A stretch of DNA of 64,000 nucleotides from a virus. Location: the IMG/VR virus record IMGVR_UViG_3300029763_000196; one strand, given 5' to 3'. Position numbers and translations under genes: made by a program. Within the stretch, counting starts at the first letter, position 1. Every line of letters starts with the position of its first letter. The notes under the pieces were generated by a model. The model was not told where the DNA came from, ran no database searches, and was given only the letters and a program-made list of their open reading frames with translations. Positions 9,189-58,411 of this stretch are shown in pieces.

Positions 9189-10106
9189 TCACAATATTTT
9201 AAAGTATTCCTTACATAAAAAACCTTTTCTTGGTGAAAAGTCTTTGAAGTCGCAACTCATGTATATTTCCTTCCTATCAGCCCAATGTGCCATGTCTTTC
9301 TGCCACTGTGGAATAATTTGGTGTGGATTGTTCAGATCACGAAAGGGTTGACAATGTGGAAGAAAACGGCGGCTTTTAGATTTCCAGTAGTTGACGCGCG
9401 CAAACGATTCTTCAAAGTCCATAAGGATGCAATACAAGAAATATTCCCCTTTATATCCATACTTGTCTATTAAAGCGGAAGCACGTTCAACTTCTGCAAT
9501 CTGTCCCGGTGTATCGCATCCAAAGCGAATACGTTTAATCCATTTTACTTTTGCAAGTAGCCGAGCGATTTCATCCGTGATTAAACGAGCATCCAGTCCT
9601 TGATTAAAATCCACTTTGATACCCAGTTTGATGATTTTCTCTATTTGCTGCAAGCCATAGTTTGAGGCCAGTATATTATTATCCATAAGGATAGCTTTCT
9701 TCCGTCCGGCTGTTATTTCCTCAATATCCATATAAGGTGAGATTTTTCCTTCTTTTTTAGGAACAACCCACCATTTACACCGATTGGGACACCCACGTGT
9801 CAGAAACCCATAGGACAAATTGGAGTCAATATTGTAGATCGAGTAATCAGGTTGAAGACGATCAACCTCAATTGGAAGAACTTTTTCAATATCATATCCA
9901 GTACCACCTTTTTCTATTTGGTTAGCATTGATATAATAGTTATAGTCGGGTGTGAAAGTGAAAACTTTAGCTGCATATACTTTATCATATTTACATAGTG
10001 GATTATACCATTCCACTTGATCGCCTCTTGCTTTGTGGTAAGCACTGATCTTCATAAGTGCTAAATTGGGGAAATTGCTATCAACGGCTAAAATTCCAAT
10101 ATTCAT
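9189..10106 (-). CDS. hypothetical protein with TRGCPNRC (CxxxC) motif and Rossmann-like N-terminus; function unknown
   Basis: 305-aa ORF; not a canonical CxxxCxxC radical-SAM motif. Confidence 0.4.
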   Translation of the reverse strand: MNIGILAVDSNFPNLALMKISAYHKARGDQVEWYNPLCKYDKVYAAKVFTFTPDYNYYINANQIEKGGTGYDIEKVLPIEVDRLQPDYSIYNIDSNLSYGFLTRGCPNRCKWWVVPKKEGKISPYMDIEEITAGRKKAILMDNNILASNYGLQQIEKIIKLGIKVDFNQGLDARLITDEIARLLAKVKWIKRIRFGCDTPGQIAEVERASALIDKYGYKGEYFLYCILMDFEESFARVNYWKSKSRRFLPHCQPFRDLNNPHQIIPQWQKDMAHWADRKEIYMSCDFKDFSPRKGFLCKEYFKIL

Positions 10107-10501
10107 TATTCTTCAAATTTAGGTTTTGGCATCCATGCTATCGGTTCCCATGACGGAGGTATGCTGCTCATTGAAGAGTAAATTGGGTTACCTTTGTACG
10201 TGTCATAGATATAACCATCCATGCAGAACCATACATTGTTGCTATATGTGCCGTTAAAAATCGCACCATGTTTACATAGAATGATGATGTCTTCATTTTC
10301 ATCCGGCAACTGTCCCTTCACGCTTATCCAAGGTGATTGCTTTGACTGCCAGTCAGCACCTTTTATAAATGCAGATTCTGCAATTTCATCATGAGATAAA
10401 TATGTAAAATCATCAAGTGACGTGTGTGTGCCATAAGTAGTTAATGTTTCGGCACTTGTCATCCTTGCTTCCTTTGCCGCTTCTTCTACTGTCTGTTTCA
10501 T
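10106..10501 (-). CDS. hypothetical protein
   Basis: 131-aa ORF, Trp-rich C-terminus. Confidence 0.35.
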   Translation of the reverse strand: MKQTVEEAAKEARMTSAETLTTYGTHTSLDDFTYLSHDEIAESAFIKGADWQSKQSPWISVKGQLPDENEDIIILCKHGAIFNGTYSNNVWFCMDGYIYDTYKGNPIYSSMSSIPPSWEPIAWMPKPKFEE

Positions 10502-10503
10502 AT

Positions 10504-11172
10504 CTATTTATCAAATAAATTAGTTTGAACCAACGTTCCTCTCTCTGTTTTTATCTCCCCAAAACATTCCCGGTGAAAACGTTCTTCTTGTGCTTCAAAG
10601 TATTCTTCATCTATTTCAGTTGCATAGAAATCGAATCCAAGTCCATAAGCAGCTATTCTGCTACTTCCTGAACCTAAATGACTATCAAAAATTTTGTCTC
10701 CCTCTTTGGCGTTTTTTCTTAATATTTCAGCATATAATTTCACTGGCTTCTGACAACGATGGATATTTCCACCTCGTTCTCCAATTGTACACCGGTTTAG
10801 AGTTATGATCCGAAGAGCTTTGTCAAAACTACTCCATGCCAATTCTCCGTCAGACATTGTTAGTCCATGTTGCCCCTTATCCCAGACGATCCAACCCATT
10901 TTAGGAGGCAGATGTTGAGTAAAATAGTTGCCACCGAAAATTATTTGATTCTTACTCACTCTAAATAACTCCTGAAAATATCTTTTGCCAGGTGGTTTCT
11001 TGTCCCAATCCTTGCGTTTATACTGCTTAAAGCCTAAATGCTTCGGCATCCCACCCTTGTGCATTATGTCTATGCCATACTGGGGATCGACTATCGCTAA
11101 ATCAAAGAACTTATCAGGAATCCCCTTCATGTATTCCATACAGTCCATGTTATATACTTCGCTTATCGGCAT
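10504..11172 (-). CDS. DNA methyltransferase, N4-cytosine/N6-adenine beta class (PF01555-like)
   Basis: motif IV DLAIVDPQYG near the N-terminus and motif I FDSHLGSGSS near the C-terminus, plus HRCQKP. Confidence 0.8.
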   Translation of the reverse strand: MPISEVYNMDCMEYMKGIPDKFFDLAIVDPQYGIDIMHKGGMPKHLGFKQYKRKDWDKKPPGKRYFQELFRVSKNQIIFGGNYFTQHLPPKMGWIVWDKGQHGLTMSDGELAWSSFDKALRIITLNRCTIGERGGNIHRCQKPVKLYAEILRKNAKEGDKIFDSHLGSGSSRIAAYGLGFDFYATEIDEEYFEAQEERFHRECFGEIKTERGTLVQTNLFDK

Positions 11173-11702: not shown

Positions 11703-12155
11703 TTATTTAACTATCATCCAATCGTTAGCAAGCATATCTGTCTGTGATGCAAGCCAACCATTTACAACGGTGCCATCGGCAGCTTTCATACATAAGTATG
11801 CAGTAAATTTGATTTTATCAATTTCCGAATCTCCATAATTGTTGGCTATCCATTTTTTGAATGATTCGGGAAGTGATTTAACATGATTAACAACCTTTTC
11901 CGTTGATAAACAATCTTCAGGACGCATGAATATGAACATACCCTTACCGTTCCATCCTTTACGAGTAACGAGATGCCCTCGTTTGAGAGATTCAAGTGCT
12001 TGCCCAAAGGTTCCCGTTTCTTCTCCAAGTAATTCACATTCCATTGCCCCTTGTCCGTAAATGGTTTCAATAGTTCCTTTGTAGCTTGCAAGTTCAGGGA
12101 ACTCAGCTACAACCCCTGCTGCATATTCGGCAGCCTTTTCGTCTAATGTCTTCAT
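11703..12155 (-). CDS. DUF2829-domain protein (Tad2-like anti-Thoeris sponge candidate) with an extra N-terminal region
   Basis: LESLKRGHLVTRKGWNGKGMFIF ... DGTVVNGWLASQTDMLANDWMIV matches the DUF2829 signature (KRxGWNGKGMYI...W..W). Confidence 0.5.
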   Translation of the reverse strand: MKTLDEKAAEYAAGVVAEFPELASYKGTIETIYGQGAMECELLGEETGTFGQALESLKRGHLVTRKGWNGKGMFIFMRPEDCLSTEKVVNHVKSLPESFKKWIANNYGDSEIDKIKFTAYLCMKAADGTVVNGWLASQTDMLANDWMIVK

Positions 12156-43026: not shown

Positions 43027-44472
43027 TTGATAAATATGACAAGCGATCAGGAAACCCGTGTGTTAGCGATGCTTTCGGCTTTTGAAGCCGGAAAGAAGAT
43101 CAGCGAACTCGATACTGCCTCCGGCAGCGTGAGCGATATGCGCATCGAGGTGCTGGACACGGACGGAGAGTCCAAAGTTATGAATTTGTCCGAGGCGGTT
43201 ACCACCGCCGCAAACGCCGTTTGTGGACGTTATTGGAATGAATCGAATTCCACGTACCGGGCTGCCGGTTATCACGGCAGCCTCGATATGCTCCGCAAGC
43301 TGCCAGAGCTGTTGGGACTTGGTTGTTACCTCGTTCAGGATGACCGTACCCGGCGCAAGCTGGATCCCACGAACCACTACCGTTTCGAGGACGGCACACC
43401 GGCGAAGCTGGACGGCACGATGGGACAGTATATGTGGTGTTGGAATATTGGTTTTTATTTTGCCGAGTGGAAAGTGGGTAATTTGAAATATTATGCCGTT
43501 TCCCTTTCTCCCATCAAAGGCAAACAGTGCGTGTATATTCCCGCCGGTGGCCTTTCCGCCCTCGGTGGTGGCGTGCTGGACAGGACGAACAATATCCTTT
43601 GTTCGGTTGTGAGTGATGCCGCCCAATATCGTGGTGGAAACAATGATGCAAGCCGGGACGGGACTTACCGCACGCAGTTGGGGATGGTTGCAACCAATAT
43701 GCAGTACCGTAATTTTTCAACTTATGCCCGCAAGCGTGGCGAGGGTTGGGATGCCAACTGGTACGTGGCTCAGGCGGTGGTTGAAATTCTTTTCATGATC
43801 ATATTCGGAACCCGCAATATGCAGGAGGCCGTGATTGCTGAAAAGGATAGCAACGGTCTGTATCAGGGTGGCCTCGGAGCCGGAACCACTAATATGCCGA
43901 ATTGGGATCAGTGGGGTTATTACCCGGTTGTTCCGACCTCTGCGGGTATTGAGTTGGGTGACGGTTGCGGTGAAACCACGTTCAACGTGCTAAAGGAGGA
44001 CGGCTCGCTGCATTATGCGGCAAAGGTTCCGGTGTTCTTTGGCCTGAAACATCCTTTCGGCCATATATGGAAAATTGTCCGGGGGCTTATCGATAACGTG
44101 GGTGATGAGAAATCCGAGGTTTATGTTGCCCCGTCCCTTTATGCCGGTTATGATGACAATTCGATTTCCGGTCTAATCAAGGTTTGCGAGGTTCCGAGAA
44201 CCGGCGGTTATATCAAACAGAAAAGTTACTACTTGCTTTGCGCCATGCCGACCGAAATCGGAGCGACCGCCTCGACTTATTTCTGTGACTATTTTTGGGA
44301 GAATTCAGCATCATCCAAAGGGCTTCGTGTCCGCCTCTCCGGTGCTGACGCTAACTATGGCACGCATGCGGGGGCGTTTGCTGCGAATGCGAACAATGCG
44401 GCCTCGGATTCGTATGCGTATGTGTCCGCTCCCCTCTGCTTTTTCGATGCGGATCCGGTGATGTCGGCCTAA
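43027..44472 (+). CDS. DGR target protein (tail/receptor-binding protein with C-terminal C-type-lectin-like variable region)
   Basis: VR (44321..44435) lies at the 3' end of this gene; encoded segment SGADANYGTHAGAFAANANNAASDSYAYVSAPL. Confidence 0.8.
   Translation: MINMTSDQETRVLAMLSAFEAGKKISELDTASGSVSDMRIEVLDTDGESKVMNLSEAVTTAANAVCGRYWNESNSTYRAAGYHGSLDMLRKLPELLGLGCYLVQDDRTRRKLDPTNHYRFEDGTPAKLDGTMGQYMWCWNIGFYFAEWKVGNLKYYAVSLSPIKGKQCVYIPAGGLSALGGGVLDRTNNILCSVVSDAAQYRGGNNDASRDGTYRTQLGMVATNMQYRNFSTYARKRGEGWDANWYVAQAVVEILFMIIFGTRNMQEAVIAEKDSNGLYQGGLGAGTTNMPNWDQWGYYPVVPTSAGIELGDGCGETTFNVLKEDGSLHYAAKVPVFFGLKHPFGHIWKIVRGLIDNVGDEKSEVYVAPSLYAGYDDNSISGLIKVCEVPRTGGYIKQKSYYLLCAMPTEIGATASTYFCDYFWENSASSKGLRVRLSGADANYGTHAGAFAANANNAASDSYAYVSAPLCFFDADPVMSA
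44321..44435 (+). repeat. DGR variable repeat (VR)
   Basis: 115 bp matching TR at 44679..44793 with 10 differences, every one at a TR adenine. Confidence 0.85.
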
Positions 44473-44678: not shown

Positions 44679-44793
44679 GGCTTCGTGTCCGCCTCTCCGG
44701 TGCTAACGCTAACAATGGCACGAATGCAGGGGCGTTTGCTACGAATACGAACAATGCAGCCTCGAATTCGAATGCGAATGTGTCCGCTCCCCT
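44679..44793 (+). repeat. DGR template repeat (TR)
   Basis: non-coding copy upstream of RT, rich in AAY codons in the VR reading frame (N A N N G T N ...); shared 3' GC-rich end GTGTCCGCTCCCCT. Confidence 0.85.
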
Positions 44794-44953
44794 ATACTTT
44801 GCAGTTAGGAAACGGTTAGATGGGGTGAAAGACCTTGCCACTTGGCAAAAGATGACGAACGCTCAAAAGGACGCTGGTAGGCCGGTAACGGTTCGAACGC
44901 TTCCGAGTAAGGCAAAGCAGACACTCAGACACTCAGAACCGCAGAAACAGACC

Positions 44954-46297
44954 ATGAAAAGGTATGGAAATTTGTTTGAACGAGTTGTCGAATATGGCAA
45001 TCTCGAACAGGCGTTTCACAACGCCGCCCGTCACAAAACTCGCCGAAGCGAAGTAATAGAGTACGGCTCCCATTTGGAGGCGAACCTATTACAGCTCCAG
45101 CGTGAACTTATCACCGGTACTTACCGCACCTCCGAATATAAGACTTTCATCATTTACGAACCCAAAGAGCGGAAGATCTTTAAACTGCCGTTCCGGGATC
45201 GTGTCGTTCATTGGGCGATAATGCAGGTTATTGAACCGATATGGCTCTCTAATTTCACCCATGATACATTCTCTTGCATACGTGGGCGTGGTATTCACCC
45301 TCTTTTATACAAGCTCCGCCGTGATTTGAAAGCGGATCCGGAGGGAACCCGGTACTGCCTGAAAATCGATGTGCGCAAATTCTATCCGAGTATAGACCAC
45401 GAGATCATGAAACAGGTAATCCGCCGAAAGCTGAAAGATGCCCGGCTGCTTGCTTTGCTTGACGGTATCGTGGACTCGGCAGAGAACGGAGTGCCTATCG
45501 GGAATTATTTATCCCAATTCTTTGCCAACCTTTATTTATCCGAACTGGATCATATCATGAAAGAAGAAATGGGCATCCGGTACTATTACCGCTTTGCCGA
45601 TGATATTGTCCTGCTGGATGGAAACAAGGAGAAGCTCCACGGAACCCTCGTGTTTATCAACCACTACCTGAATAATGAACGTGCTTTGAGTATAAAGCCG
45701 AATTATCAGGTTTTCCCGGTAGAGAGCAGGGATATTAATTACGTGGGATACGTGACGTTTCATGATTATTGCCTCGCCCGTAAGCAGAACAAGAAAAACC
45801 TCTGCCGTGAGGTGGCAAAATTACGCAAACGTGGGCTGAGTGATGAGGAGATCCGAATACAGGCATCCAGCCGGTTGGGGTTCATGCAGCATTGCAATAG
45901 CATTTATTTATTAAAAACTCTCAATATGAAAACATTCAGTGAAGTAACAAACAGCGGTGGTAATCTCACGGGAGATAAATACCACATTGATGACATTTTG
46001 AACAGGGAAATCCACCTGAAAGGTTTCGAGGTAAAAGAATCCAAGTATAAGGGTGAATGCCTGATCATTCAGTATGATATCTACGAGCAGGTAAAGGATA
46101 AAACCGGAGTTTTGCTCACTAACGAGGACGGCACTCCGAAAATGGATTGGGTGGAACATATCTCCTTTACCGGTTCGGAGGCTCTTATAAAACAGTTAAA
46201 GGATGTAGTATTGGATGAACCCTGTTCGGCAAAGATTATTAAACAACCAATCGGTGACCGGGGTAAATGCTTTTATAAGATAACCGATCCCGATTAA
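44954..46297 (+). CDS. DGR reverse transcriptase
   Basis: start chosen at MKRYGNLFERV (DGR RT-like N-terminus); RT motifs incl. YRFADDIVLL (YxDD), QG-like and thumb region; the track ORF from 44780 runs upstream through the TR. Confidence 0.88.
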   Translation: MKRYGNLFERVVEYGNLEQAFHNAARHKTRRSEVIEYGSHLEANLLQLQRELITGTYRTSEYKTFIIYEPKERKIFKLPFRDRVVHWAIMQVIEPIWLSNFTHDTFSCIRGRGIHPLLYKLRRDLKADPEGTRYCLKIDVRKFYPSIDHEIMKQVIRRKLKDARLLALLDGIVDSAENGVPIGNYLSQFFANLYLSELDHIMKEEMGIRYYYRFADDIVLLDGNKEKLHGTLVFINHYLNNERALSIKPNYQVFPVESRDINYVGYVTFHDYCLARKQNKKNLCREVAKLRKRGLSDEEIRIQASSRLGFMQHCNSIYLLKTLNMKTFSEVTNSGGNLTGDKYHIDDILNREIHLKGFEVKESKYKGECLIIQYDIYEQVKDKTGVLLTNEDGTPKMDWVEHISFTGSEALIKQLKDVVLDEPCSAKIIKQPIGDRGKCFYKITDPD

Positions 46298-46908: not shown

Positions 46909-47751
46909 ATGAAAACACCTATTTCTTACTACGGAGGCAAGCAAACCCTCCTGAAACATATTCTGCCTCTGATCCCAAATCATAAACTTTATACAGAGGC
47001 TTTCTGCGGCGGTGCTGCAGTATTGTTTGCCAAGCGTCCGGCTGATGGCGAAGTTATAAACGATATCAGTATGGATATAACGAACTTTTATTGGATGGCT
47101 AAAGTCTATTATCGTGACCTGAAACAGGAGATTGAGAAGACTTTGCACAGCCGGGATATGCACGCCCATGCCGGACATATCCTGCAGTATCCTCAATTCT
47201 TCCAACCGGTGCAGCGGGCGTGGGCTGTTTGGGCGTTGTGTAAAATGTCCTTTGCCAGCATGATGGACGGTTCATTCGGTTATGACTTTGGTGGTGGAAT
47301 GCCGAAAAAACTGCGTAATGCAAAGGATGAGTTCACGGAATGGCTATGCGCCCGGCTTGATAACGTGACCATAGAGAACCGGGATGCGCTGGATGTCATC
47401 TCCACTTATGACTCGCCCGATACGTTTCATTTTGTGGATCCGCCGTATATAAACAGTGATTGCGGCCATTACGAGGGTACATTTGATGAGTATTGCATGG
47501 AGAAGCTCCTGCAGCTTTTGGAGCAGGTGAAAGGTAAGTTCATGCTGACAATGTTTCCCCTGCCAATGATAGAGGAATACGCAAACAAAAACGGATGGAT
47601 AATCCACCGGGTAGAAAGAACCATCAGCGCATCAAAGACGAGCCGAAGAAAGCAGGAGGAATGGATGGTATGCAATTATGAAGAACACCCGCAGCGAACT
47701 TTGTTTGATTACAAAGACAGCAGCGATGTTGATGCAACAGATGCCTCCTAA
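46909..47751 (+). CDS. DNA adenine methyltransferase (Dam/D12 class)
   Basis: N-terminal YYGGK, FCGGAAV (motif I) and DPPY (motif IV) of the alpha-class N6A MTases. Confidence 0.8.
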   Translation: MKTPISYYGGKQTLLKHILPLIPNHKLYTEAFCGGAAVLFAKRPADGEVINDISMDITNFYWMAKVYYRDLKQEIEKTLHSRDMHAHAGHILQYPQFFQPVQRAWAVWALCKMSFASMMDGSFGYDFGGGMPKKLRNAKDEFTEWLCARLDNVTIENRDALDVISTYDSPDTFHFVDPPYINSDCGHYEGTFDEYCMEKLLQLLEQVKGKFMLTMFPLPMIEEYANKNGWIIHRVERTISASKTSRRKQEEWMVCNYEEHPQRTLFDYKDSSDVDATDAS

Positions 47752-47830
47752 ATACTGTATAAAGATAGTCATTTCTAATGAATTGCACAAATATTGGAAC
47801 GTATTTTTTATGTGAAAATGCAATAATTTT

Positions 47831-47876
47831 AAAGGCTTTCAAACACCATTCAAATGACGTTTGAAAGCCTTTTTAT
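47831..47876 (+). terminator. rho-independent terminator after the Dam gene
   Basis: 14-bp perfect stem AAAGGCTTTCAAAC / GTTTGAAAGCCTTT followed by TTTT. Confidence 0.6.
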
Positions 47877-47900
47877 ATCGTGCGTGTGCGATAATTTTTT

Positions 47901-47969
47901 CACATTTCGTTTTATACCCTGATTATCGCATTTCGTTTTTTATACCGCTCGCATTTCGTTTTGCCGATT
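47901..47969. promoter_or_regulatory. right-end transposase-binding-site repeats (inverted relative to left end)
   Basis: CACATTTCGTTTT, ATCGCATTTCGTTTTTT, TCGCATTTCGTTTT = reverse complements of the left-end AAAACGAAATG(C/T)G sites. Confidence 0.5.
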
Positions 47970-47977
47970 ATAATAAG
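47970..47977. repeat. right copy of ATAATAAG flanking direct repeat
   Basis: identical to 12273..12280. Confidence 0.5.
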
Positions 47978-48003
47978 TAGTATTTTCTTCATAATATTTT
48001 TAT

Positions 48004-48856
48004 TTATTCGCATAGTCCATGAAACAGGCTCATGCAGGCATATCCACTTTCCGGCTCGAACATATCAGGGGTATGTTCTTTAACGTACTCCAAAACTTCC
48101 TCTACATAAGGATATTGTTTGTTTTTACAGAATCTTTGAGGTATGTATGATGGAGGAAAGAAGGAATGTCCCACGTTTTTCTCTGCTTGAATCAGACGTT
48201 GACACATTTCAGGATCATTTTTGGCTATAAGTTCAATTTCTTTATGCCGACACATGATACACGGGAAACATCCAACACGTGAGAATCCACGATAATACAA
48301 TGGATTCGGTTTCTGCCCTGCATCCAGTATGCAATCTATAACTTGCTGTGCACTCCATTTGAAGATCGGTCTTAGAACAGAAGCGTCAAATTGGGAACAC
48401 CATTCTTTGACATCCTTACTTCGGTAGTTTTCAGTTCTTCCTTTCTTATTAGGTTGAAAATACGATTTGAAGTACATACATTCCTCTTCCATTGCCGCAC
48501 GTGCTGTACTTTCTCCGGCTCTGATACCTTGTATAATAATGCAGCTTTCTTTCAAAGAAAGTACATAATCAATCATTGGCTTCATTTTTAGTTCACTGGT
48601 ACAAAACCGTGCATTCGTGGAAGGAAATCTTTTCTTGTGAACTGCCAAAGACACAAAATCGTATTTTGATTTGAGAGTTATAAGTCTTACTCCCATTTGC
48701 AGACAAACATCATTCACATGTTTATATGTGTCAGGGTGTTCCCAGCCGGTGTCACAAAACACAGCGATTAAATTCCCCCCCCCCATATTGTTTGAAGGCT
48801 TGGATCAAACATGCTTGTGAATCCTTACCACCTGAAAAACTTACTAATATTTTCAT
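48004..48856 (-). CDS. PAPS-reductase-like PP-loop ATPase (phosphoadenosine phosphosulfate reductase family), N-terminus split off by a frameshift at a G10 tract
   Basis: upstream mini-ORF MKILVSFSGGKDSQACLIQAFKQYGGG carries the SGGxDS PP-loop; main ORF starts MGGGNLIAVF; removing one G (C10 at 48775-48784 on +) fuses them. Confidence 0.7.
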
Positions 48857-48858
48857 TT

Positions 48859-49486
48859 TTATGTCATTTCAATTTTTACATATTCATTTTTATTAATCCC
48901 GGCACTACCTTTGGGAGAATACACTAATCGGCCTCCATTATCCAATATCTTTTGTACATCTTTCATAGCTTGGTGTGCTTGGGTATAGTCTTTGTATTCT
49001 TGGTGGCCTATTGGGTATTTACAATATCTTCTGCCACCGTCAGGCATGATGCTGATACCGAATACTGTTTCACGAGTTTTTCGGTTGAAATTCTGTTGAG
49101 TCCTTACTTTCATTTTTTTTGATACATTTTCCCAGTTTAAGTATAAATACACATTCGTTATCCGGTGCTCCCCAATTGGTGTTACCAACTCCGATGGTTA
49201 TAGATTCAAGTTCAAAAAGCATTGTCCGTTTGGTGTAGCCAAAACGGAAGCAAACATGAGTGTATTCTTTGGGGTGAAAGCCGTTTCCACGTGTAATACA
49301 AGAAAAACAAATAGCTTTCTTACAATAGAAACCAGTCTTTTCATAGGAATTGCGACCTCCACATTTTGCTAATCTTCCGATCCAGTATTTCTTGATCTCT
49401 CTGTATTCTTCTTTCTTATTTCCGGATTCGATCATTTCATACCATTTTGCTTTTAATGGCAGGTCAAGGATTTTCATATTAACCAT
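48859..49486 (-). CDS. ASCH-domain protein; two overlapping ORFs (49070..49486 and 48859..49188) that would fuse with one fewer A in an A8 run
   Basis: MKILDLPLKAKWYEMIESGNKKEEYREI resembles ASCH/PUA-like N-terminus; T8 at 49113-49120 lies exactly in the overlap. Confidence 0.4.
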
Positions 49487-49720
49487 AGTCTAAAAGAGTT
49501 GCGGATTCTGTTTGTCGTGAAGGATTTTTTGAACACGTTCAATTTCTTCATCTACTTCACGCTCAATTTGTTTACTTATTCGTAAATCTATCTGTCTCTT
49601 ATTTTTGAAATATTCTTTTTGGCAACGGCGCATTTCCACCACTTTGTCGAAAAATTCTTTTGGAGTCATAGATTTAAAAGGTATGGAAAAGGCCGCTTTG
49701 ATGCGGCCTCCCCAGTGTGA

Positions 49721-50305
49721 TTACTTTTTTCCAATCAGAAAGTCTTTCCACAATTCTTTGAATTGTTCTCCAAAGTAAATTGCGATTTCACTTGATTTTA
49801 CAGCAAGGCGAGAGCCGACACTCGCAGTCGAGTACGACCAAACGGTATGCGAGGACGCATAAGCGAGGCCGCACCTCGCACCGTAATCCGCATTACCGCC
49901 CCAAAGAACCAGCTGATTACGATCCTCTTCGTCCATTTCATCAATTTCTTTCTGATTATAAAGATAAAACCACGGCGTATAACGGTATTCATCTTTAGTA
50001 AATCGTGGAAAATCAGGATCGTTGTTCAATGCACGAGCAATTGTGCATAGTTTGATGTAGGCGAGGTGTGCAATATCAGCCACTTCTTCTTTGTGTCCGT
50101 CTTCATCCTCAACAAGTAGGCGAACAATAGGTTTTACACCTATTGCTTCACAAGCATCTTCGTAGGTTTTAATATTGTGATAATCTGTATAATCCGGCTT
50201 TTGCTTTCCGAATAGGGCTGTTAGAATACTAATTGCTTTAGGACAGTCGTTTGCTTCACTAAAAGCGGCTGTTACCTTTTCTTGTGTGATTTTAAGTTCT
50301 GACAT
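49721..50305 (-). CDS. hypothetical protein
   Basis: 194-aa ORF. Confidence 0.4.
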   Translation of the reverse strand: MSELKITQEKVTAAFSEANDCPKAISILTALFGKQKPDYTDYHNIKTYEDACEAIGVKPIVRLLVEDEDGHKEEVADIAHLAYIKLCTIARALNNDPDFPRFTKDEYRYTPWFYLYNQKEIDEMDEEDRNQLVLWGGNADYGARCGLAYASSHTVWSYSTASVGSRLAVKSSEIAIYFGEQFKELWKDFLIGKK

Positions 50306-50313
50306 AATGTAAA

Positions 50314-51066
50314 TTATTTATTGTTAATACTATATCCGAATAATGCAAAATCTCCCCGGCACGGATCATCCGGGAAAATTGTTTTCATGTAATTGGTTAC
50401 TTGTTGAACCATTTTCCAGTCCTCTGTTTTGCGTGTTGTTATCCCAAGCTGGTGTGCCATTTTTGCAACATGTGCATCCAATGGTATGTATAATTCTGTC
50501 GGGTGAATAATATTCCAAATACCTAAATCCACCGGCGATTTTCGTACTACCCACCGTAGAAACAGACAAATACGCTTGCATGGAGAATCACGCTCCAATT
50601 TTGGAATACCTTTTACGCCACCAAAATCTGTTTGTATTTCACGGATAACATTGTTGTAACCCTCATAAAATACTTCCAAATCATCCCATTCCTGATATAT
50701 GTTGTACAACCGCTGGCAAATGCAGAAGAAGTCATGGTAGGTGAACATACGGTAGAAGGTATTTGTATTTTCTTTGTATTGTTCCCATACTTTGTTCATA
50801 ATGAAGGCATAAGGAGAATTACCCATTAGATTATCCAAAATTTCTGCTTGCTGCATTATCAGTTTGCGATTCCCGAAAGCTATCCATGAAGTAAGAAAGG
50901 CACTGATTTCTATGTCCTTTTTATCATTGTACTTATGTGGAAAAAATATAGGATCATCTTTTATAAAATCAGGTGTTTCAAATTGTTTCGCCCAGTCAAG
51001 TAGTTTGTCTCTTAGTTCTTCCATAATATTCTTCTTTCCATTTTTTGAAAGCGGCTTCTTTATCAT
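50314..51066 (-). CDS. hypothetical protein, possibly HhH-type DNA-glycosylase-like (DUF2400/TIGR02757-like)
   Basis: segment LDAHVAKMAHQLGI resembles the helix-hairpin-helix region of Nth-type enzymes; family recall uncertain. Confidence 0.25.
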   Translation of the reverse strand: MIKKPLSKNGKKNIMEELRDKLLDWAKQFETPDFIKDDPIFFPHKYNDKKDIEISAFLTSWIAFGNRKLIMQQAEILDNLMGNSPYAFIMNKVWEQYKENTNTFYRMFTYHDFFCICQRLYNIYQEWDDLEVFYEGYNNVIREIQTDFGGVKGIPKLERDSPCKRICLFLRWVVRKSPVDLGIWNIIHPTELYIPLDAHVAKMAHQLGITTRKTEDWKMVQQVTNYMKTIFPDDPCRGDFALFGYSINNK

Positions 51067-51679
51067 TTGATTTCATCCTTTGTATGAATGATTGATGGGA
51101 TTCCAATAATTCTTTGGCCTCTTCATCTCCATTTTCCGATCTTTCAGTTAGATGTTTGATATATTCTCCGTAGAACATTCCAGTGCTGTTATTATTTTGT
51201 TCATGGGCTTCATTAATTGAAAGAGAAGAAACAATTTCATCACGCTGTGCATCGTATTCATTTAACCAGCCGAGAATGATATTACCGTCCAGTCTATCGT
51301 AAATCTTACCGGAAGCCATAGCATTACGGAAACACAATTTGATTTCCTCCAATTTGAGATAATAGAATCTGTCTATTATTAGATCAGCGGTAAGTGCCAC
51401 TTGAACATCATTCATCGTTTTTCCAACATTGAAAAAAGACACAAGCTCGTTAATCGCAATTACCAGTATGGCTCTTGCGCCAGCCAATGTGATTTCTTTT
51501 CTTATAACGGAGAGTGGTAGGTTAGGAGTGTTGAGAACAGCTTCTTTAATCGAACTTACGTGCAATCCCTTGTAATACTCCGCTTGCAAGGTCAGCAAGT
51601 CTTTCAACGCTTTCTTTTCGGTTGCCGGGAGATTGCTGTTGACTTGAATTAAGTTGTTTCCCATACTTGTTAAAATCAT
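50996..51679 (-). CDS. hypothetical protein
   Basis: 227-aa ORF; start uncertain (overlaps upstream gene). Confidence 0.35.
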   Translation of the reverse strand: MILTSMGNNLIQVNSNLPATEKKALKDLLTLQAEYYKGLHVSSIKEAVLNTPNLPLSVIRKEITLAGARAILVIAINELVSFFNVGKTMNDVQVALTADLIIDRFYYLKLEEIKLCFRNAMASGKIYDRLDGNIILGWLNEYDAQRDEIVSSLSINEAHEQNNNSTGMFYGEYIKHLTERSENGDEEAKELLESHQSFIQRMKSNDKEAAFKKWKEEYYGRTKRQTT

Positions 51680-51965
51680 TATTAGACCATCTGACTAAAC
51701 GTTTGGAAACTTCAAATGTACGTTCCTTCTCAAAGCGCATTTTCCGTCCTCCGCATTCAGTCCAATACTCGAAAAAGTCCTTCAACATATCATCAGGATA
51801 TTTCCCTCTATACATGAGGACTTCACTTCTGAATTTGTCTTTCCTTGCAGAAAGAGAATCCTTATTCATATTCATCTTATGGCCTAATCCGGCCATGAAT
51901 GCTTGTTCCAATGTTGCATCAGGATGATCCCGACACCACTGGGTTGCTAATTCTTCTGATTTCAT
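51546..51965 (-). CDS. hypothetical protein
   Basis: 139-aa ORF. Confidence 0.35.
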   Translation of the reverse strand: MKSEELATQWCRDHPDATLEQAFMAGLGHKMNMNKDSLSARKDKFRSEVLMYRGKYPDDMLKDFFEYWTECGGRKMRFEKERTFEVSKRLVRWSNNDFNKYGKQLNSSQQQSPGNRKESVERLADLASGVLQGIARKFD

Positions 51966-51970
51966 TTGAT

Positions 51971-53077
51971 TTATAATTTAGATAACCAATATTTCCATAT
52001 TCGTGAGGCTACGTGCGCCATCATAACGGGTGGTACACTCATTCCACAGATATAATGTGGGGATTGGTTGAGGAAATGATAATCTTGTGGAAATGTGGAT
52101 ATATTACATACTTCTGACCGTGATAAATATATAGGCTGCTTAAAAGGAATAATTGAGTCTGCATGAGTTGTTAGGGTGTAGCTTACTTTGTTCTCATATA
52201 GATATTGTTGATTAAAAAAGCCTCGTTTTCCAGTTTGTTTCTTATAGGCCTCTGCCAAAGCAATATCTCCTGCCACTCTCTGCTCAAATAACTTTCTCAT
52301 TTTTACACCAATAGGCTTTCCCTTGTAATCCGCATATTCCCCATAATATATTTCCGATTCATTAAATTCCATGTCGATGTATGGCTCAACATTGAAGAGG
52401 TCTGAAACTTTTAGGAAATGGACTCCCAAATCATGCCTGATACATATAAAGAATACACGTTCTCTTTTTTGAGGTACTCCCATTTTAGAAGCATCAAGAA
52501 GAAAATGCTGACAATAATAACCAGCTTCCTCAAAGTCTTTGTATATACGTCTGACATAATCAATCGCATTCCCTAAAAGAAGTCCTTTCACATTTTCAGC
52601 AATAACGACTTTAGGTTTTAAGCGTTTGGCAAGTGCAATAAAATCAAAAAAGAGCGTGTCTAAAACTTGTGTCTTTTGACCTTCTTTGAATTTCTTTTCT
52701 TTACCCCACGCATCTTCACGTAATCCCGACATGCTAAATGTACTGCAAGGTGGTGATCCGTCCAATATATCTAAATGGTACAGTTCTTCGGGAAGATTAT
52801 TCCTTTTCACTAAATCACGAATATCTTCCAAATAACTATACTGGGGATGATGGTTTGTTTCATAGCATTTCATCATTCGTGGATCAATCTCATTACAGCC
52901 AATAACATCGTAACCTGCTATTTTGTAACCCATAGTAGAGCCACCGCCACATGCAAAACAAGAAAATACCTTTCCTTTATCTTTAGTAAAAACAGCATCT
53001 TCTAAAGACCAGCGATAAGGATAGAGATGTTGTGTATGGGGGGGGGTAATTACATCTTTCATCATTCCACCTCCCAT
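51971..53077 (-). CDS. DNA cytosine-5 methyltransferase
   Basis: motif I FSCFACGGGS, motif IV PCSTFS, ENV (motif VI), QxRxR-like RERVF; in-frame C9 run (TPPH) near the 5' end. Confidence 0.85.
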   Translation of the reverse strand: MGGGMMKDVITPPHTQHLYPYRWSLEDAVFTKDKGKVFSCFACGGGSTMGYKIAGYDVIGCNEIDPRMMKCYETNHHPQYSYLEDIRDLVKRNNLPEELYHLDILDGSPPCSTFSMSGLREDAWGKEKKFKEGQKTQVLDTLFFDFIALAKRLKPKVVIAENVKGLLLGNAIDYVRRIYKDFEEAGYYCQHFLLDASKMGVPQKRERVFFICIRHDLGVHFLKVSDLFNVEPYIDMEFNESEIYYGEYADYKGKPIGVKMRKLFEQRVAGDIALAEAYKKQTGKRGFFNQQYLYENKVSYTLTTHADSIIPFKQPIYLSRSEVCNISTFPQDYHFLNQSPHYICGMSVPPVMMAHVASRIWKYWLSKL

Positions 53078-53598
53078 AATTCAGCTACTCTTTTGAACTC
53101 TTCATCAGCCGGAACCGGGCAATCTTTGATCCATTGCATATCTTTTACTTTCCATAACGAAAGGTCTGTGTTGTCAGGAATATGCTTTTTAATATCAGGA
53201 AAAAGATTGAGCCGAAGAGATTTACTTTCCATAAGTTCATCTTTGTAATCCAACAAAAAATTATTGGCCTCCAATAAACTATGAACATCATTAACAGAAT
53301 GTGGAGTGTAAACAACTCCATCGAAGTATCTGATATAATTGGGGAGCATATCAGCCAGTGCCGTATATAGAAATAATTTTCCTTTATTACCATAGGCCAA
53401 TTTTTGAACGGTTTTGATACTTTCAGCCAAATTTGCCAGTTTTTCAGGAAACAAAAGTGGTTCTCCACCAGTTATCATGATCTCTTTGTAATTAAAGTGC
53501 TCAACAACTGGTAATTTTGAAAAATCCCATGAGTTGTTGCAACACATAGGACATTTGTTCGGACATTTGGTTGTAACCAATAGACGTAACTTTTCCAT
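53062..53598 (-). CDS. small radical SAM protein (NrdG/QueE-like organic-radical-activating enzyme family)
   Basis: CPNKCPMC = CxxxCxxC cluster motif, then ITGGEPLL SAM-binding motif; 178 aa. Confidence 0.65.
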   Translation of the reverse strand: MEKLRLLVTTKCPNKCPMCCNNSWDFSKLPVVEHFNYKEIMITGGEPLLFPEKLANLAESIKTVQKLAYGNKGKLFLYTALADMLPNYIRYFDGVVYTPHSVNDVHSLLEANNFLLDYKDELMESKSLRLNLFPDIKKHIPDNTDLSLWKVKDMQWIKDCPVPADEEFKRVAELWEVE

Positions 53599-53875
53599 TT
53601 ATAATGATATTGTTTGGGTGTATTTCAATTCTCCGGTATATCCACGTGCTTTCAATTCTGCGATAAGTTCCCGTGGAGAAAATTTTGCCAATTCAGGATT
53701 GGAATATATTTTCTTCAAATTCCCCCCCCCCCGGAGTTTTCTTACGGTTTCTGGCATAAACATTACCGCACTCTTTACAATATGTCTGCAATCCATCTTC
53801 GGTTGAAGCATTTTTCCAAAACTCACTGACCGGAAGTTCCCGGCCACATTTGCTACATTTTTTTAATTTTTCCAT
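53599..53875 (-). CDS. small zinc-ribbon protein split by frameshift at a G11 tract
   Basis: N-terminal CSKCGREL...CKECGN zinc ribbon (53693..53875) and C-terminal part (53599..53847) join in frame if one G of the tract (C11 at 53722-53732 on +) is removed. Confidence 0.45.
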
Positions 53876-54330
53876 TATTCCTTTTCTTTAATTCTACCAT
53901 ATTCACATATTAGTAAGGCATCCGAAGTTGCCAATGTAACTTTTGCATACGGGAACAGCTGTTGGGCTTTCTTCTTTAAGATGTTTTTCCATTCTGTCTT
54001 ACCCAATTTGTCTGTATTTCGTAATCCTATAGTTTTTTGCCAAGTTTGTGGAGATACTGTTACTGTCGGAATCCCACAAGCTATCAATCCCATAGTCAGC
54101 TGTCCGTAACCTTCTCCAAAAACAAAAGAGGCAGAAGCACTTTGTCCGGTCATGCCATTCACTCGTTCCAAATAACAAACGCTATTTTCTTTGTATATGG
54201 AGAGAAAATCTAATAAGTCTTTGGGAGTTGGTGGCATTTTGATACACTCCAATAATTTGTTATTCTCGGTGTCGTACACTACAATTCCACCGTTTTTGCC
54301 AACATCTATACCTATGATCCTTCGTTTCAT
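53875..54330 (-). CDS. RuvC-like Holliday junction resolvase
   Basis: N-terminal IIGIDVGKNGGIVVYD (RNase H-like fold first strand with catalytic Asp), 151 aa. Confidence 0.55.
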   Translation of the reverse strand: MKRRIIGIDVGKNGGIVVYDTENNKLLECIKMPPTPKDLLDFLSIYKENSVCYLERVNGMTGQSASASFVFGEGYGQLTMGLIACGIPTVTVSPQTWQKTIGLRNTDKLGKTEWKNILKKKAQQLFPYAKVTLATSDALLICEYGRIKEKE

Positions 54331-54333
54331 AAA

Positions 54334-54552
54334 TTATACTTTTTTGTTTATAAATCTTTTGAGCTTAATTACATCTTTCTTTCCAAGCCTTAGTGCTTCA
54401 CTGGTCTTGATGTCAGAAGGTGAAGCTTTACAATTCTCGGTTATCCTTTCAAAATGTCGGATAAAGGATTTTAGGAAATAGTCGGGGATTTCAACTTTCA
54501 TAATGATTGATTTATGTGGATAAGCCCGGACTCGAACCGGGAACTGTTGCAA
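54334..54552 (-). CDS. hypothetical protein
   Basis: 72-aa ORF. Confidence 0.3.
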   Translation of the reverse strand: MQQFPVRVRAYPHKSIIMKVEIPDYFLKSFIRHFERITENCKASPSDIKTSEALRLGKKDVIKLKRFINKKV

Positions 54553-54679
54553 TCAGGATTTTCGTTTCTGCTTCCGTTTGTACGTATGTCAAGTGTTAAT
54601 AGCATATTACCTGACTCGTGATGCTATTCGTGCATTTTTACCACAGAAACTAAGCGTCTTCCGATTTCGCCACTTATCC
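54513..54679 (-). other. tRNA-like element: perfect T-arm and 7-bp acceptor pairing, but 167 nt long with an internal structured insert (split/intron-containing tRNA, tRNA-like ncRNA or att-site remnant)
   Basis: minus strand: GGATAAG...GCGAAATCGGAAGACGC...[GTTTCTG..AATAGCAT hairpin ATGCTATT..CAGAAAC]...CCCGG TTCGAGT CCGGG CTTATCC A. Confidence 0.3.
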
Positions 54680-54866
54680 GTTTGCCTCTACAATAGAGGC
54701 ATTTTACATGAACAAAAAGACTCTTTGTAGTATCTACCGCCGTGGAGCGTATGCAGCGTACTCGACTCGACTTGCAAAGAGAAGAAAAAAGGTGAGGCAT
54801 GATAGTTCCCGGATAGGCGGTCAAGCCACACCGGGAGAAGCTGATTATTAATCGGGTTGATAATTA

Positions 54867-55076
54867 TTATTTTAGGAATTTAGCAAAAGTCTTGATTGAG
54901 CCTTCATTATTACTTTTTAAAGAGGCCAATTCTGTATTTTTAGAAGTTAGTGTAGAAATAACAGATTTATTCTTTTCGATTTCTGCATCAATATCACTAT
55001 TAAGTGTTTCCAAATCGGCTTTTGCTTGTGCAAATTGAGACAATATCGTATCTCTTCTTTGTTGAAATGTCAGCAT
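54867..55076 (-). CDS. small coiled-coil protein
   Basis: 69-aa ORF. Confidence 0.3.
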   Translation of the reverse strand: MLTFQQRRDTILSQFAQAKADLETLNSDIDAEIEKNKSVISTLTSKNTELASLKSNNEGSIKTFAKFLK

Positions 55077-55077
55077 A

Positions 55078-55887
55078 TTATTTTGTCATTTTTAAAAATT
55101 CAGGAGCAATGCCATATAGAGGTGTCTTCCCGTCCCACTTGTCTATAAATTGTTTATATAAAATCTCACGGGTGAGTCCACGGGACGCAATTAAAGCTTG
55201 TTCTGTTTTTAGTTGCTCCAGTTCGTTTTGCTTCTTTTGTTCTTCAATCTTCTGATCAAGTACCGAAATATTAGTGTTTACCTCGTTACGGCTATCTATT
55301 TTATCGCGGACAGCTCTTGAAAATTCCAATTGTGCGGAGAAGGTCAATAACTGCAATCCCCGTTTCTCAAATTCTTTATCAACGATCTGTTCCAGTCTCT
55401 TTTCAAATACCAATGAACCACCGTCAGCCATCAGACTGTCTGTTTTATGTTTGCGACTTTCTTCTTTGATAAGATCATATATACGTGGCTCCAAAATATT
55501 ATCTTCTAATGATTGCATAAAGCCATCTTTTCCCGATGGGGTGTCAGCCTTATCAATATGCTTGTTATCAAATACAATATCAATAGCCCTGTTTTTCATT
55601 ACTTTATAAGAGTAAGTTGGCCGGGCTGTAAACTCTGTATTGTCGGCTGCTTTTAGTGTGACTGGATCAGAAAATTCTCCACGCTGATCGAATAGCGGAA
55701 CTTGAAAAAGCTCTGTGCCTAATTCCCATGTAGATACCTTACCGGCAACGATTTTAAAATCTTCTTTCCCTTGTTTGCCGTAGTTCTCCATAAGGACACC
55801 GGCATAATTGGGAGCAACTCTTTCGCATGAAGCAAACAAAACAACGGCAAATAGTGCCACAATCAAAAAATCAATCTTTCTTTTCAT
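55078..55887 (-). CDS. SPFH/band-7 (prohibitin-like) lipoprotein
   Basis: signal peptide with lipobox LFASC; SPFH-like core followed by long coiled coil. Confidence 0.5.
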   Translation of the reverse strand: MKRKIDFLIVALFAVVLFASCERVAPNYAGVLMENYGKQGKEDFKIVAGKVSTWELGTELFQVPLFDQRGEFSDPVTLKAADNTEFTARPTYSYKVMKNRAIDIVFDNKHIDKADTPSGKDGFMQSLEDNILEPRIYDLIKEESRKHKTDSLMADGGSLVFEKRLEQIVDKEFEKRGLQLLTFSAQLEFSRAVRDKIDSRNEVNTNISVLDQKIEEQKKQNELEQLKTEQALIASRGLTREILYKQFIDKWDGKTPLYGIAPEFLKMTK

Positions 55888-56046
55888 TTTCTACTTTTTT
55901 AATGATATTATAAACTATAAATGCTACTGTCAGCATAATTATTGAAATTCCCAACCACGCATTTATGTGATTGAATACGCGGTTGCCAATGAAGAAAGCC
56001 GATACGACAAGTACCGGCTTCCAGTATTTCTTTACAGTCTTCATTG

Positions 56047-57508: not shown

Positions 57509-57736
57509 TCATAAAGGTTTTAAGCCATATCGGGCAGAACCGACAAATGGCTGTGGGTTAGTCCTTATGTTTGCTTTGTGTATATCATCTGTACGATGAT
57601 TGAATAATCGGGGTAATCCCGTTATTTTGTCATATACAACCAGTTCAGACGATACATAACAAATAAAGCCTTTCAGTCGCTCTTTCAACCATGCGTTCTG
57701 ATAGGCTCTGCGTTCACGATATTCTTGGTAGCTCAT
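57509..57736 (-). CDS. hypothetical protein
   Basis: 75-aa ORF; G9 tract (C9 at 57778-57786 on +) lies in its 5' leader. Confidence 0.35.
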   Translation of the reverse strand: MSYQEYRERRAYQNAWLKERLKGFICYVSSELVVYDKITGLPRLFNHRTDDIHKANIRTNPQPFVGSARYGLKPL

Positions 57737-57795
57737 TCCCTTTGGGCGAGCTGTGAGAAGGGGAGTGTAATTTCTCGCCCCCCCCCGATTTAGAT

Positions 57796-58411
57796 TTACT
57801 CTTTCCCATCAATCAAATTTTTATATTGTTCTTCTGAAACGAACTTGTCGCAGTTCCCATACCAAGTACCATCATTTATCTTGTATGGCCTGACTGTTTT
57901 ATCCATTTCATTCATAACACCGACTACCGCATTTTCTTTGCTATTATCATCCCATACAATAACAACATCGCCGACAGTCGGGATATATTCAGGCTGTAAC
58001 TTCTCAAAATTGAAGGAGTAATGTTTTTCTTCCTTCATGGCGGCAAGCATCTTTGCCTTTTCCTCTTCCGTAGCTTTACGGAATCCCTTCATGCCTCCGA
58101 TACCAGCTTCGGGTGTGAGTCTTACAAAAACTCTGTCACCTTCATCATTGGAAGGAACATAGGCGACAAGGCCGAAAGGTACTTTAATTGCCGGTAAAAA
58201 AGAGAGTGGCCTTTCTTCTCTAATTTCAGAGAGAATCATCATGCTGCCCCCTCCGCGATTCGGATTGATAATTACGTCACCGGGGATGAATGTCTCACCC
58301 TCAAATTCAAATTTACCCCCCCCCCGTAACTTTTTGAGTAGGTTGCATACTTTCTTCTTTCACGATTTTTACCATGTGTCCTTCGGGCACTTCAACTGTT
58401 ACTGTTCTCAT
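57796..58411 (-). CDS. hypothetical protein split by frameshift at a G10 tract
   Basis: upstream mini-ORF MRTVTVEVPEGHMVKIVKEESMQPTQKVTGGG* (ATG 58411 overlaps upstream stop as ATGA) continues into MMILSEIREERP... if one G (C10 at 58316-58325 on +) is removed. Confidence 0.45.

Follow-up and report, generated by a model that had tools for sequence, protein, structure and literature searches.

Length-polymorphic G:C tracts in a mosaic accessory block of a LoVEphage-type phage suggest contingency-locus control of DNA-methylation and candidate anti-defense genes

An accessory block in a LoVEphage-type genome

A 64,000-nucleotide stretch of viral DNA from IMG/VR (record IMGVR_UViG_3300029763_000196, here called the window) holds at positions 48004-53875 a block of genes that includes a PAPS-reductase-like enzyme, a cytosine methyltransferase and a small radical-SAM enzyme, some of them crossed by long G:C homopolymer tracts. 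An initial sequence-only reading described these genes as leftward and tightly packed, and a dense minus-strand run of open reading frames (ORFs) is indeed what lies there. Over its 5872 bases the block is 98.0-99.5% identical in nucleotide sequence to six deposited LoVEphage-type records, its gene order and tract positions are the same in BI-TP1 (PQ571265), PV4-TP1 and MW660583, and by local BLAST the 64-kb window is colinear, in reverse, with the circularized BI-TP1 genome, save for about 36 kb (one 35.7-kb insertion) that BI-TP1 is without. By this identity and colinearity the window is a LoVEphage-type genome, from a temperate Bacteroidaceae phage, and the block forms the accessory section of its leftward early operon. 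The window copy departs from BI-TP1, PV4-TP1 and MW660583 in its tract lengths, which give a different pattern of ON and OFF genes, and in having a 35.7-kb Mu-like phage just downstream of the PAPS-reductase gene. LoVEphage is reported to turn up in gut viromes more often than any other inducible Bacteroidota phage, and it lysogenizes several Bacteroides and Phocaeicola species (PMC12629997). Its published description makes no mention of methyltransferases, a radical-SAM gene, homopolymers or frameshifts. The block itself is already deposited and annotated in LoVEphage genomes; conserved hypervariable G:C tracts controlling its DNA-modification genes seem to be unreported. The genes and tracts on which the argument turns are these:

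48004-53875, minus strand: leftward accessory block, a tight run of ORFs matching BI-TP1 gp78-gp88
48004-48856, minus strand: PAPS-reductase-like PP-loop gene (SspD/BrxP-like, phrog_424), frameshifted and OFF by G10; G9 gives a 283-residue protein
48775-48784, minus strand: tract A, C10 on the given strand and G10 in the coding sense, 24 codons into the PAPS-reductase gene and just past its SGGKDS PP-loop
49070-49486, minus strand: ASCH-like protein (phrog_625, function unknown), the ASCH assignment being weak
50314-51066, minus strand: TIGR02757/DUF2400 protein with a predicted HhH-GPD DNA-glycosylase-like fold and an invariant LDTHV motif, from hidden Markov model (HMM) matches and a structure model
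51971-53077, minus strand: orphan C5 cytosine DNA methyltransferase, in frame and ON, encoded by a cassette that varies across the lineage
53038-53046, minus strand: tract B, G9 on the given strand and C9 in the coding sense, codons 11-14 of the C5 methylase
53062-53598, minus strand: 178-residue orphan radical-SAM enzyme (phrog_31524), with crAss001-type orthologues 53-55% identical
53599-53875, minus strand: zinc-ribbon protein gene, split and OFF by G11; G10 gives a 91-residue protein; intact in BI-TP1
53722-53732, minus strand: tract C, C11 on the given strand and G11 in the coding sense, in the zinc-ribbon gene

HMM searches, which the sequence-only reading had proposed as a check, were run and largely confirmed this gene content.

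Homopolymer tracts set the reading frame of block genes

Four block genes had been credited with homopolymer tracts; we find three tracts, A to C, in this range, and the radical-SAM ORF is without one. The PAPS-reductase ORF as listed (48004-48786) matches Pfam PAPS_reduct at 4.8e-19 and begins past its PP-loop. Its true start, MKILVSFSGGKDS, lies at 48856 in another frame, and this start is in frame with the listed ORF only at G6, G9 or G12, so that with the G10 found here the gene is frameshifted. The frame-corrected 283-residue protein includes the PP-loop SGGKDS and matches phrog_424 at 3.6e-56, in agreement with the original call of a PAPS-reductase-like PP-loop enzyme, if not with the ORF as listed. 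A related contig with G9 at tract A (L145) reads straight through the gene. Across 11 related genomes the tract is 8-12 nucleotides long, and it is lineage-specific: relatives of the PAPS reductase read YGADK or YGTDK at this place, one of them with an intermediate G7. In public contigs the ON form of the protein has 283 residues and the OFF form 260.

The gene at 51971-53077 matches PF00145 (DNA_methylase) at 4.3e-45 over 321 of the 324 profile positions and the dcm model TIGR00675 at 3.7e-36 (125 bits, cut-off 100.65). Its translation holds FACGGG (motif I), SPPCS (motif IV) and an ENV motif, and a search for a cognate nuclease among the neighboring genes gave no nuclease match in Pfam, PHROG or PADLOC. 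By these profile matches and motifs the product is an orphan C5 cytosine DNA methyltransferase, as had been called, and the gene is intact in the window. Tract B keeps it in frame at C6, C9 or C12 and is 7-10 nucleotides long across 15 genomes. Between the tract and motif I there is no ATG, GTG or TTG, so out-of-frame alleles can start only at Met49 and lose the S-adenosylmethionine (SAM)-binding motif, which rules out their rescue by an alternative start. The ON form has 368 residues and the OFF form 320 in public contigs. Within the LoVE lineage some genomes are without this methylase, and others carry a methylase allele that is 77-82% identical.

The zinc-ribbon call was also sound, with weak matches to Pfam zinc-ribbon models and matches to ribbon-containing PHROG families at about 1e-12 to 1e-9, and the gene is split in the window. 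Tract C, 8-11 nucleotides long in 11 genomes, keeps it in frame at G7, G10 or G13; BI-TP1, with G10, has one 91-residue ORF, and public contigs hold a 91-residue ON form and a 60-residue OFF form.

Three further tracts lie outside the block:

57778-57786, minus strand: tract D, G9 in the coding sense; G8 or G11 adds a 24-residue N-terminal extension to the 75-residue ORF at 57509-57736
58316-58325, minus strand: tract E, G10 in the coding sense, in the 5' part of a 204-residue hypothetical gene; OFF, in frame with G9
8774-8782, minus strand: tract F, G9 in the coding sense, inside a Dam-family N6-adenine methyltransferase gene; OFF, in frame with G8

Frame-corrected, the Dam-family gene matches PF05869 at 3.4e-15. 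All six G:C runs are 9-11 nucleotides long in the window and lie in its LoVEphage part (27 kb, 38% G+C), and a G9 pattern matches the window 10 times, overlaps counted, in these six tracts, 0.37 being expected by chance. Five of the six are in the 5' or middle coding region, and only every third length gives a full ORF. In the state captured by the window the C5 methylase is ON, and the PAPS reductase, zinc ribbon, Dam methylase and 204-residue gene are OFF. BI-TP1 has the same six tracts and a seventh, which lies at position 38800 of the BI-TP1 record, beyond what the window covers, and none of its tracts is in an annotated structural gene. Recoding GGGGGGGGG as GGAGGTGGC would lock a tract gene ON.

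Tract length varies among near-identical genomes

We compared tract lengths in up to 16 related genomes per site. Tract positions are fixed among nearly identical genomes, and the lengths run from 6 to 12 nucleotides overall, with a range of 3-5 nucleotides per site (outside the block, 7-11 at the 57778 site, 8-10 in the 204-residue gene and 6-9 in the Dam methylase). Pairs of genomes only 0.06-0.25% apart in sequence differ at 2 of 3 to 4 of 5 tract sites. Of the marks of a contingency locus, two are seen here, namely homopolymers of at least 7 nucleotides in or just upstream of a coding region, with frame-dependent expression of the full ORF, and length polymorphism among near-identical genomes.

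Such length differences could also stem from errors of sequencing or assembly, or from simple decay of prophage genes that are dispensable, with no regulated or adaptive switching. Several sequencing platforms make errors in long G runs, GenBank annotators have handled these genes as fragments, and the fraction of genomes with the gene ON is about one-third for three genes, as random lengths would give. Yet the lengths span up to 5 nucleotides, beyond the usual consensus error, and six runs of at least 9 nucleotides in 27 kb of such DNA are far above chance. Two contigs from different, independent samples that are identical over 20.5 kb also agree in every tract length, which speaks against random noise from assembly. 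The ON and the OFF proteins both occur as exact sequences, each on about 900 to at least 1000 contigs in public collections; some of these are Mb-sized contigs from isolates, of the size of complete genomes. The tracts are moreover kept at the same six positions in otherwise diverged genomes, including the L040 lineage, and are themselves uninterrupted and undeleted, unlike what decay would predict. We regard artefact or decay as unlikely.

It is also conceivable that the tracts are programmed sites of transcriptional slippage or ribosomal frameshifting, which would yield full-length protein at any DNA length and make the polymorphism incidental. RNA polymerase is prone to slip on long homopolymers in several bacteria and mobile elements, and out-of-frame lengths dominate the public genomes, yet the downstream ORFs are intact. 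However, known bacterial transcriptional slippage occurs mostly on A/T runs, variation in DNA length alone explains the data, and no downstream stimulatory structure was seen, none having been tested for. Programmed slippage strikes us as quite improbable. Whatever the cause, tract-bearing genes of this kind are routinely annotated as fragments or truncated proteins.

Marker genes of the block occur without one another outside the lineage

The sequence-only reading saw in the PP-loop enzyme, the radical-SAM enzyme and the ASCH protein one pathway of base hypermodification or modification sensing, as yet uncharacterized, in which the glycosylase-like protein and the methylase might also cooperate. 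All of these genes do lie in one tightly packed, co-oriented operon, PP-loop and radical-SAM enzymes act in known base-modification chemistry, and the genes stay together both in the LoVEphage lineage and in the diverged L040 lineage. We searched for each marker gene in IMG/VR and scored the 8-10 kb flanks of the loci by tblastn and then with local HMMs. At this level no two of the four marker genes are found together again outside the LoVEphage lineage, and this lack of conserved co-occurrence is the very result that had been named in advance as speaking against a single pathway. The radical-SAM gene is found in 38 crAss-like loci (52-57% identity, genomes of about 100 kb) with none of the other markers, its neighbors there being crAss_PVA, HicA-like and ThyX genes. 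The PAPS reductase is found at 57 loci (60-87% identity) with no ASCH, DUF2400 or radical-SAM gene; its neighbors are VRR-NUC (33 of 57), an SNF2-N6/N4 methylase fusion (21), DUF551 (16) and a C5 methylase (11-12). A recurrent pairing of the PAPS reductase with ASCH is thereby rejected, the local ASCH HMM matching at none of the 57 loci. One 239-residue family of PAPS-reductase neighbors (7 loci) shows an ASCH-like N-terminal motif by eye and has no Pfam match. The ASCH-like gene occurs at 19 loci with none of the other markers.

For DUF2400 the single-protein locus search in viral contigs returned LoVEphage copies only, and its distant contexts come from a protein search and contig look-ups. 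Elsewhere it has AAA_15 and RNase_T genes as neighbors in phages of about 44 kb, while in Parabacteroides chromosomes it adjoins an AlkD-like DNA_alkylation gene and a LOG-family gene. On three of the roughly 44-kb gut phage contigs (L105-L107, 8001-9275) DUF2400 is fused to about 180 extra residues in proteins of 385-431 residues, which follow an AAA_15 ATPase gene and have an RNase_T exonuclease gene two genes downstream.

Variants of the same phage also drop or swap parts of the block. Several LoVE-like variants are without the C5 methylase and the DUF2400-to-ASCH stretch, and a conserved backbone is left of RuvC, the zinc ribbon, the radical-SAM gene and the genes for the 139-, 227- and 194-residue proteins. 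At least one supposed pathway member is frameshifted in most genomes, and two are in the window. The absence of Que/Dpd partners, already remarked on from the sequence, extends to the whole of BI-TP1, in which no TGT/DpdA, FolE, QueD or QueE and no sugar- or amino-acid-transferase is annotated; matches to QueC and HxsC fall far under their cut-offs. Taken together, we consider cooperation in one pathway very unlikely, and from its distribution the block appears to be a mosaic of separately acquired genes on a conserved backbone, not a biosynthetic pathway. The broader suggestion of DNA modification or counter-defense fares better: genes of that kind are present (the C5 methyltransferase and the PP-loop enzyme, with a Tad2-like gene and further methylases nearby), and a counter-defense reading is plausible for some members of the block; it is the single pathway that lacks support. 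Finding PP-loop, radical-SAM and ASCH genes together in one phage operon is, by itself, not evidence of a hypermodification pathway.

A PAPS-reductase-family enzyme with a possible role against phosphorothioate-based defenses

In the PADLOC defense library the corrected PAPS reductase matches SspD at 1.2e-22 (profile positions 3-202 of 277), BrxP at 6e-17 and DndC at 1e-7; against the NCBIfam DndC model it scores 25 bits, with a cut-off of 290, which places the homology at the level of the superfamily or a subfamily. A PDB sequence search gave as sole match a chain named PptA (1.5e-05), for which we found no explaining paper. One might instead suppose that the enzyme serves housekeeping or auxiliary metabolism, as a CysH-type PAPS reductase of sulfur assimilation, with the radical-SAM protein as an NrdG- or QueE-type activase, and PHROG does label phrog_424 an auxiliary metabolic gene. 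Against this, the NCBIfam CysH, PAPS-reductase and CysD models give 16-47 bits, with cut-offs of 154-397, the best match in the defense library is SspD, and the radical-SAM protein has no NrdG match and only generic structural matches (described below), with no NrdD or Que genes in BI-TP1. We give a housekeeping role hardly any credence, and counting PAPS-reductase genes as sulfur-metabolism "auxiliary metabolic genes" in viromes is probably misleading.

The enzyme resembles SspD, BrxP and DndC, the sulfur-inserting proteins of phosphorothioation systems, in its PAPS-reductase domain and its PP-loop. Unlike those systems, the phage locus has no SspB/DUF4007 domain, cysteine desulfurase or restriction module nearby. 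Dnd, Ssp and BREX type 4 phosphorothioate systems are frequent in gut Bacteroidota, and their synthesis of phosphorothioates reportedly depends on both a PAPS-reductase-domain protein and a P-loop nucleoside triphosphatase (NTPase; DndD, SspC or BrxC) (PMC12914056). Among the ten block proteins there is no PADLOC or Pfam match to such an NTPase, and none adjoins the PAPS-reductase gene in BI-TP1. We speculate that the phage enzyme, if it writes phosphorothioates, would have to borrow its partners from the host. A parallel is a Vibrio phage that escaped Dnd on gaining two phage-specific genes, one of which encodes a PAPS-reductase domain fused to a Dam methylase (10.1101/2021.05.05.442762); this case (Piel et al.) is also cited in PMC13551039. 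As with p0018 of Vibrio phage P5a, a phage-borne PAPS-reductase-family domain here lies among DNA methylases in a variable region. Unlike p0018, with its fusion to Dam, the 283-residue protein stands alone, and we liken the two by domain and not by sequence comparison. By analogy, we infer that the PAPS-reductase-family enzyme may work against phosphorothioate-based defenses.

The 178-residue radical-SAM family

The ORF at 53062-53598 has a sub-threshold Pfam Radical_SAM match, and its place in the superfamily rests on the CxxxCxxC cluster motif, a GGE SAM-binding motif and a partial TIM-barrel core, which together uphold the call of a small radical-SAM enzyme. In NCBIfam it gives 30 bits with HxsC (cut-off 268), 16 bits with MoaA and nothing else; the "HxsC-like" label that its crAss001 counterpart bears is therefore not earned. 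Structure searches return generic top matches (EpeE, ChlB and viperin), and NCBIfam gives no HMM match to NrdG. With HMM scores far under the cut-offs and two generic structure searches, we reject NrdG, QueE and HxsC as identities, and no subfamily is assignable. Reassignment as an NrdG with an NrdD elsewhere, foreseen as one way in which the hypermodification idea might fail, is not what happened, there being no NrdD annotated in the whole BI-TP1 genome. Sequence searches of the PDB with the radical-SAM, DUF2400 and ASCH proteins were uninformative.

Orthologues occur in crAss001 (MH675552, 67867-68400), IAS virus and PhiCrAssBcn phages; on a crAss001-type contig (L055) the gene is at 9995-10537. 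The protein and the crAss001 "HxsC-like radical SAM maturase" are 53-55% identical over their full length, of the same size, and share the motifs CPNKCPMCC, GGEP, TPH and DCPVP. The LoVEphage context differs from that in crAss001, an unrelated virulent phage, LoVEphage being temperate. In crAss001/Kehishuvirus-type Bacteroides phages the gene sits between the gene for a portal-vertex auxiliary protein and the HicA-like and ThyX genes. One possibility is that the family common to LoVEphage and crAss001 represents a minimal enzyme of a new kind that modifies nucleic acids or nucleotides. A second radical-SAM gene, of 305 residues (contig L001, 3827-4744; BI-TP1 gp92), lies at roughly 9.1-10.1 kb of the window, in the same early operon and near DUF551 and Dam genes. 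The 90%-identity clusters of a public protein collection fuse the PAPS reductase with this 305-residue protein and the zinc ribbon with the 178-residue one; such clusters merge unrelated neighboring proteins, and their labels can therefore mislead for this locus.

Probable contingency-locus control and possible bet-hedging

We think it fairly likely that the block is a mosaic anti-defense and DNA-methylation region whose genes act singly under contingency-locus, or bet-hedging, control. The C5 methyltransferase would methylate the phage's own DNA against host restriction, and the SspD/BrxP-like enzyme may act against phosphorothioate-based defenses in the manner suggested by the Vibrio phage case. 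Six genes (three in the block and three outside it, including the Dam methylase) would be set by G:C homopolymers of 6-12 nucleotides in the 5' coding region. We infer that replication slippage lengthens or shortens the tracts, and so shifts the reading frame, at a rate far above that of ordinary mutation, such that a phage or lysogen population would mix many ON/OFF combinations. The benefit may be bet-hedging between hosts that punish unmodified DNA and hosts that punish modified DNA. The presence of a Tad2-like gene next door supports an anti-defense neighborhood.

Several points weigh against this reading. The ON fractions (3/11 for the PAPS reductase, 4/15 for the C5 methylase and 3/11 for the zinc ribbon) are those of random length and, being near one third, are equally compatible with dispensable genes decaying neutrally, and misassembly of long G runs could account for some of the length differences. 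The lengths come from assembled genomes and contigs, and within-population heterogeneity and reversibility are presumed. Our flanks of 8-10 kb came from gut-virus-rich collections, in which a partner further off or encoded by the host would be missed, and a lack of co-occurrence elsewhere does not prove a lack of cooperation in this phage. The biochemical roles given to the genes here are putative, and the phage is without the P-loop NTPase partner that phosphorothioate synthesis is reported to need.

Contingency-locus control of phage genes has precedents. Hypermutable polyG tracts are known in Campylobacter phages (Sorensen 2021, as cited in PMC12823448), and homopolymer contingency loci have been described in T2 and T4, including the T2 DNA-glucosylation (modification) gene agt (PMC12633550). 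As in these phages, the LoVEphage tracts are homopolymers within genes whose length sets the frame; in at least one of the published examples a DNA-modification gene is toggled in this way to escape a defense system. Unlike the published tracts, those of LoVEphage belong to a temperate phage of a Bacteroidaceae host, reach 12 nucleotides, and are putative switches; and unlike contingency loci in receptor-binding genes, they lie in two methyltransferases, an SspD-like gene and small accessory genes. Phasevarions of Haemophilus, Neisseria and Helicobacter turn methylation ON or OFF through simple-sequence repeats located in the 5' part of methyltransferase genes. The position of the repeat is alike here, but the methylases are orphan and phage-borne, and the likely pay-off is restriction evasion, not control of a host regulon.

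We also find it tempting to speculate, tentatively, that the six or seven tracts independently toggle the C5 and Dam methylases, the SspD-like enzyme and accessory proteins, and could in this way form a combinatorial epigenetic and anti-defense switchboard with dozens of states per population; this seems to us possible, if short of probable. If such a switchboard exists, it may underlie the broad host range of LoVEphage across Bacteroides and Phocaeicola. If contingency-locus control is borne out, the block would be a clear case, in a temperate phage of gut commensals, of bet-hedging with DNA-modification genes, and would be one way to account for a single phage coping with differing restriction, phosphorothioate and modification-dependent defenses.

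Remaining genes of the block

The DUF2400 ORF at 50314-51066 matches Pfam DUF2400 at 1.4e-67 and TIGR02757 at 5.6e-67, above the curated cut-off. Its AlphaFold2 (AF2) model (pLDDT 92.5) has 39 weak Foldseek matches among solved structures, none with E at or below 0.001 (probability 0.9-1.0, TM about 0.5, E 0.03-0.4, sequence identity 9-15%), and nearly all are HhH-GPD glycosylases: AGOG, OGG1, EndoIII and TAG. Asp197 is invariant within LDTHV, a motif that we take to resemble the Asp-bearing VDTH motif of endonuclease III. In its fold matches, weak as they are, and in its conserved-Asp motif the protein is like the HhH-GPD glycosylases (archaeal AGOG, OGG1, endonuclease III), and the initial description of it as HhH-like and putatively glycosylase-like was reasonable; on the strength of the model it may be a DNA glycosylase or repair enzyme. 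A literature search found the family mentioned only in an unrelated paper, and no activity of any member.

The ASCH-like gene is real, and its assignment to ASCH, made from the sequence at the outset, is weak: the window protein has no Pfam match, and 7 of 13 family members touch PF04266, the best with E 0.0048. The BI-TP1 annotation labels the homologue ASCH from a structure alignment, and a profile search of the PDB gave nothing relevant.

The other ORFs of the block fall into PHROG families of unknown function or are confined to the lineage, and a resolvase gene bounds the block on the right:

48859-49188, minus strand: small hypothetical ORF (BI-TP1 gp87-like), LoVE lineage only
49490-49669, minus strand: 59-residue hypothetical protein (phrog_15937)
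49721-50305, minus strand: 194-residue hypothetical protein (phrog_11581), syntenic with the radical-SAM gene in LoVE-like relatives
50996-51679, minus strand: 227-residue hypothetical protein (phrog_35728)
51546-51965, minus strand: 139-residue hypothetical protein (phrog_19415)
53875-54330, minus strand: RuvC-like Holliday-junction resolvase (phrog_1770), a conserved backbone gene

A tRNA annotated in MW660583 just past the block is not found by ARAGORN in window positions 47000-56000.

Flanking genes and the inserted Mu-like phage

The left edge of the block abuts the inserted phage, on the far side of which the LoVEphage genes resume:

10504-11172, minus strand: N6/N4 DNA methylase, near the PAPS reductase in the uninterrupted phage, followed by a DUF551 gene
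11703-12155, minus strand: Tad2-like (DUF2829) anti-Thoeris-type protein, PF11195 at 2.8e-24, on the LoVEphage side of the insertion
12277-47972: Mu-like transposable phage of 35.7 kb, nested in the LoVEphage genome 31 nucleotides downstream of the PAPS-reductase stop

The N6/N4 methylase and DUF551 genes, usual neighbors of the PAPS reductase elsewhere, lie at about 10.1-11.2 kb, and the insertion separates them from it. The Tad2-like gene adjoins the N6/N4 methylase; it is present in PV4-TP1 and replaced in BI-TP1.

The insert has an ATAA direct repeat at both junctions, and its ends share a 14-nucleotide terminal inverted repeat, AAAACGAAATGCGA. Its genes include an S24 repressor, a 690-residue putative transposase, a MuB-like ATPase, Portal_Mu/Mu_F and a D12 Dam methylase at 46909-47751. 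Megablast with window positions 11194-36000 found no close relative in the phage collection, and with its Mu-like Pfam matches the insert is a different transposable phage from Hankyphage, which we had considered. It looks from the sequence as if it carries a diversity-generating retroelement, with a 481-residue target protein at 43027-44472 whose C-terminal stretch (about 44285-44461) is repeated at about 44685-44819. In ORF translations, the 505-residue ORF that follows this repeat (44780-46297) has a reverse-transcriptase-like YxDD motif.

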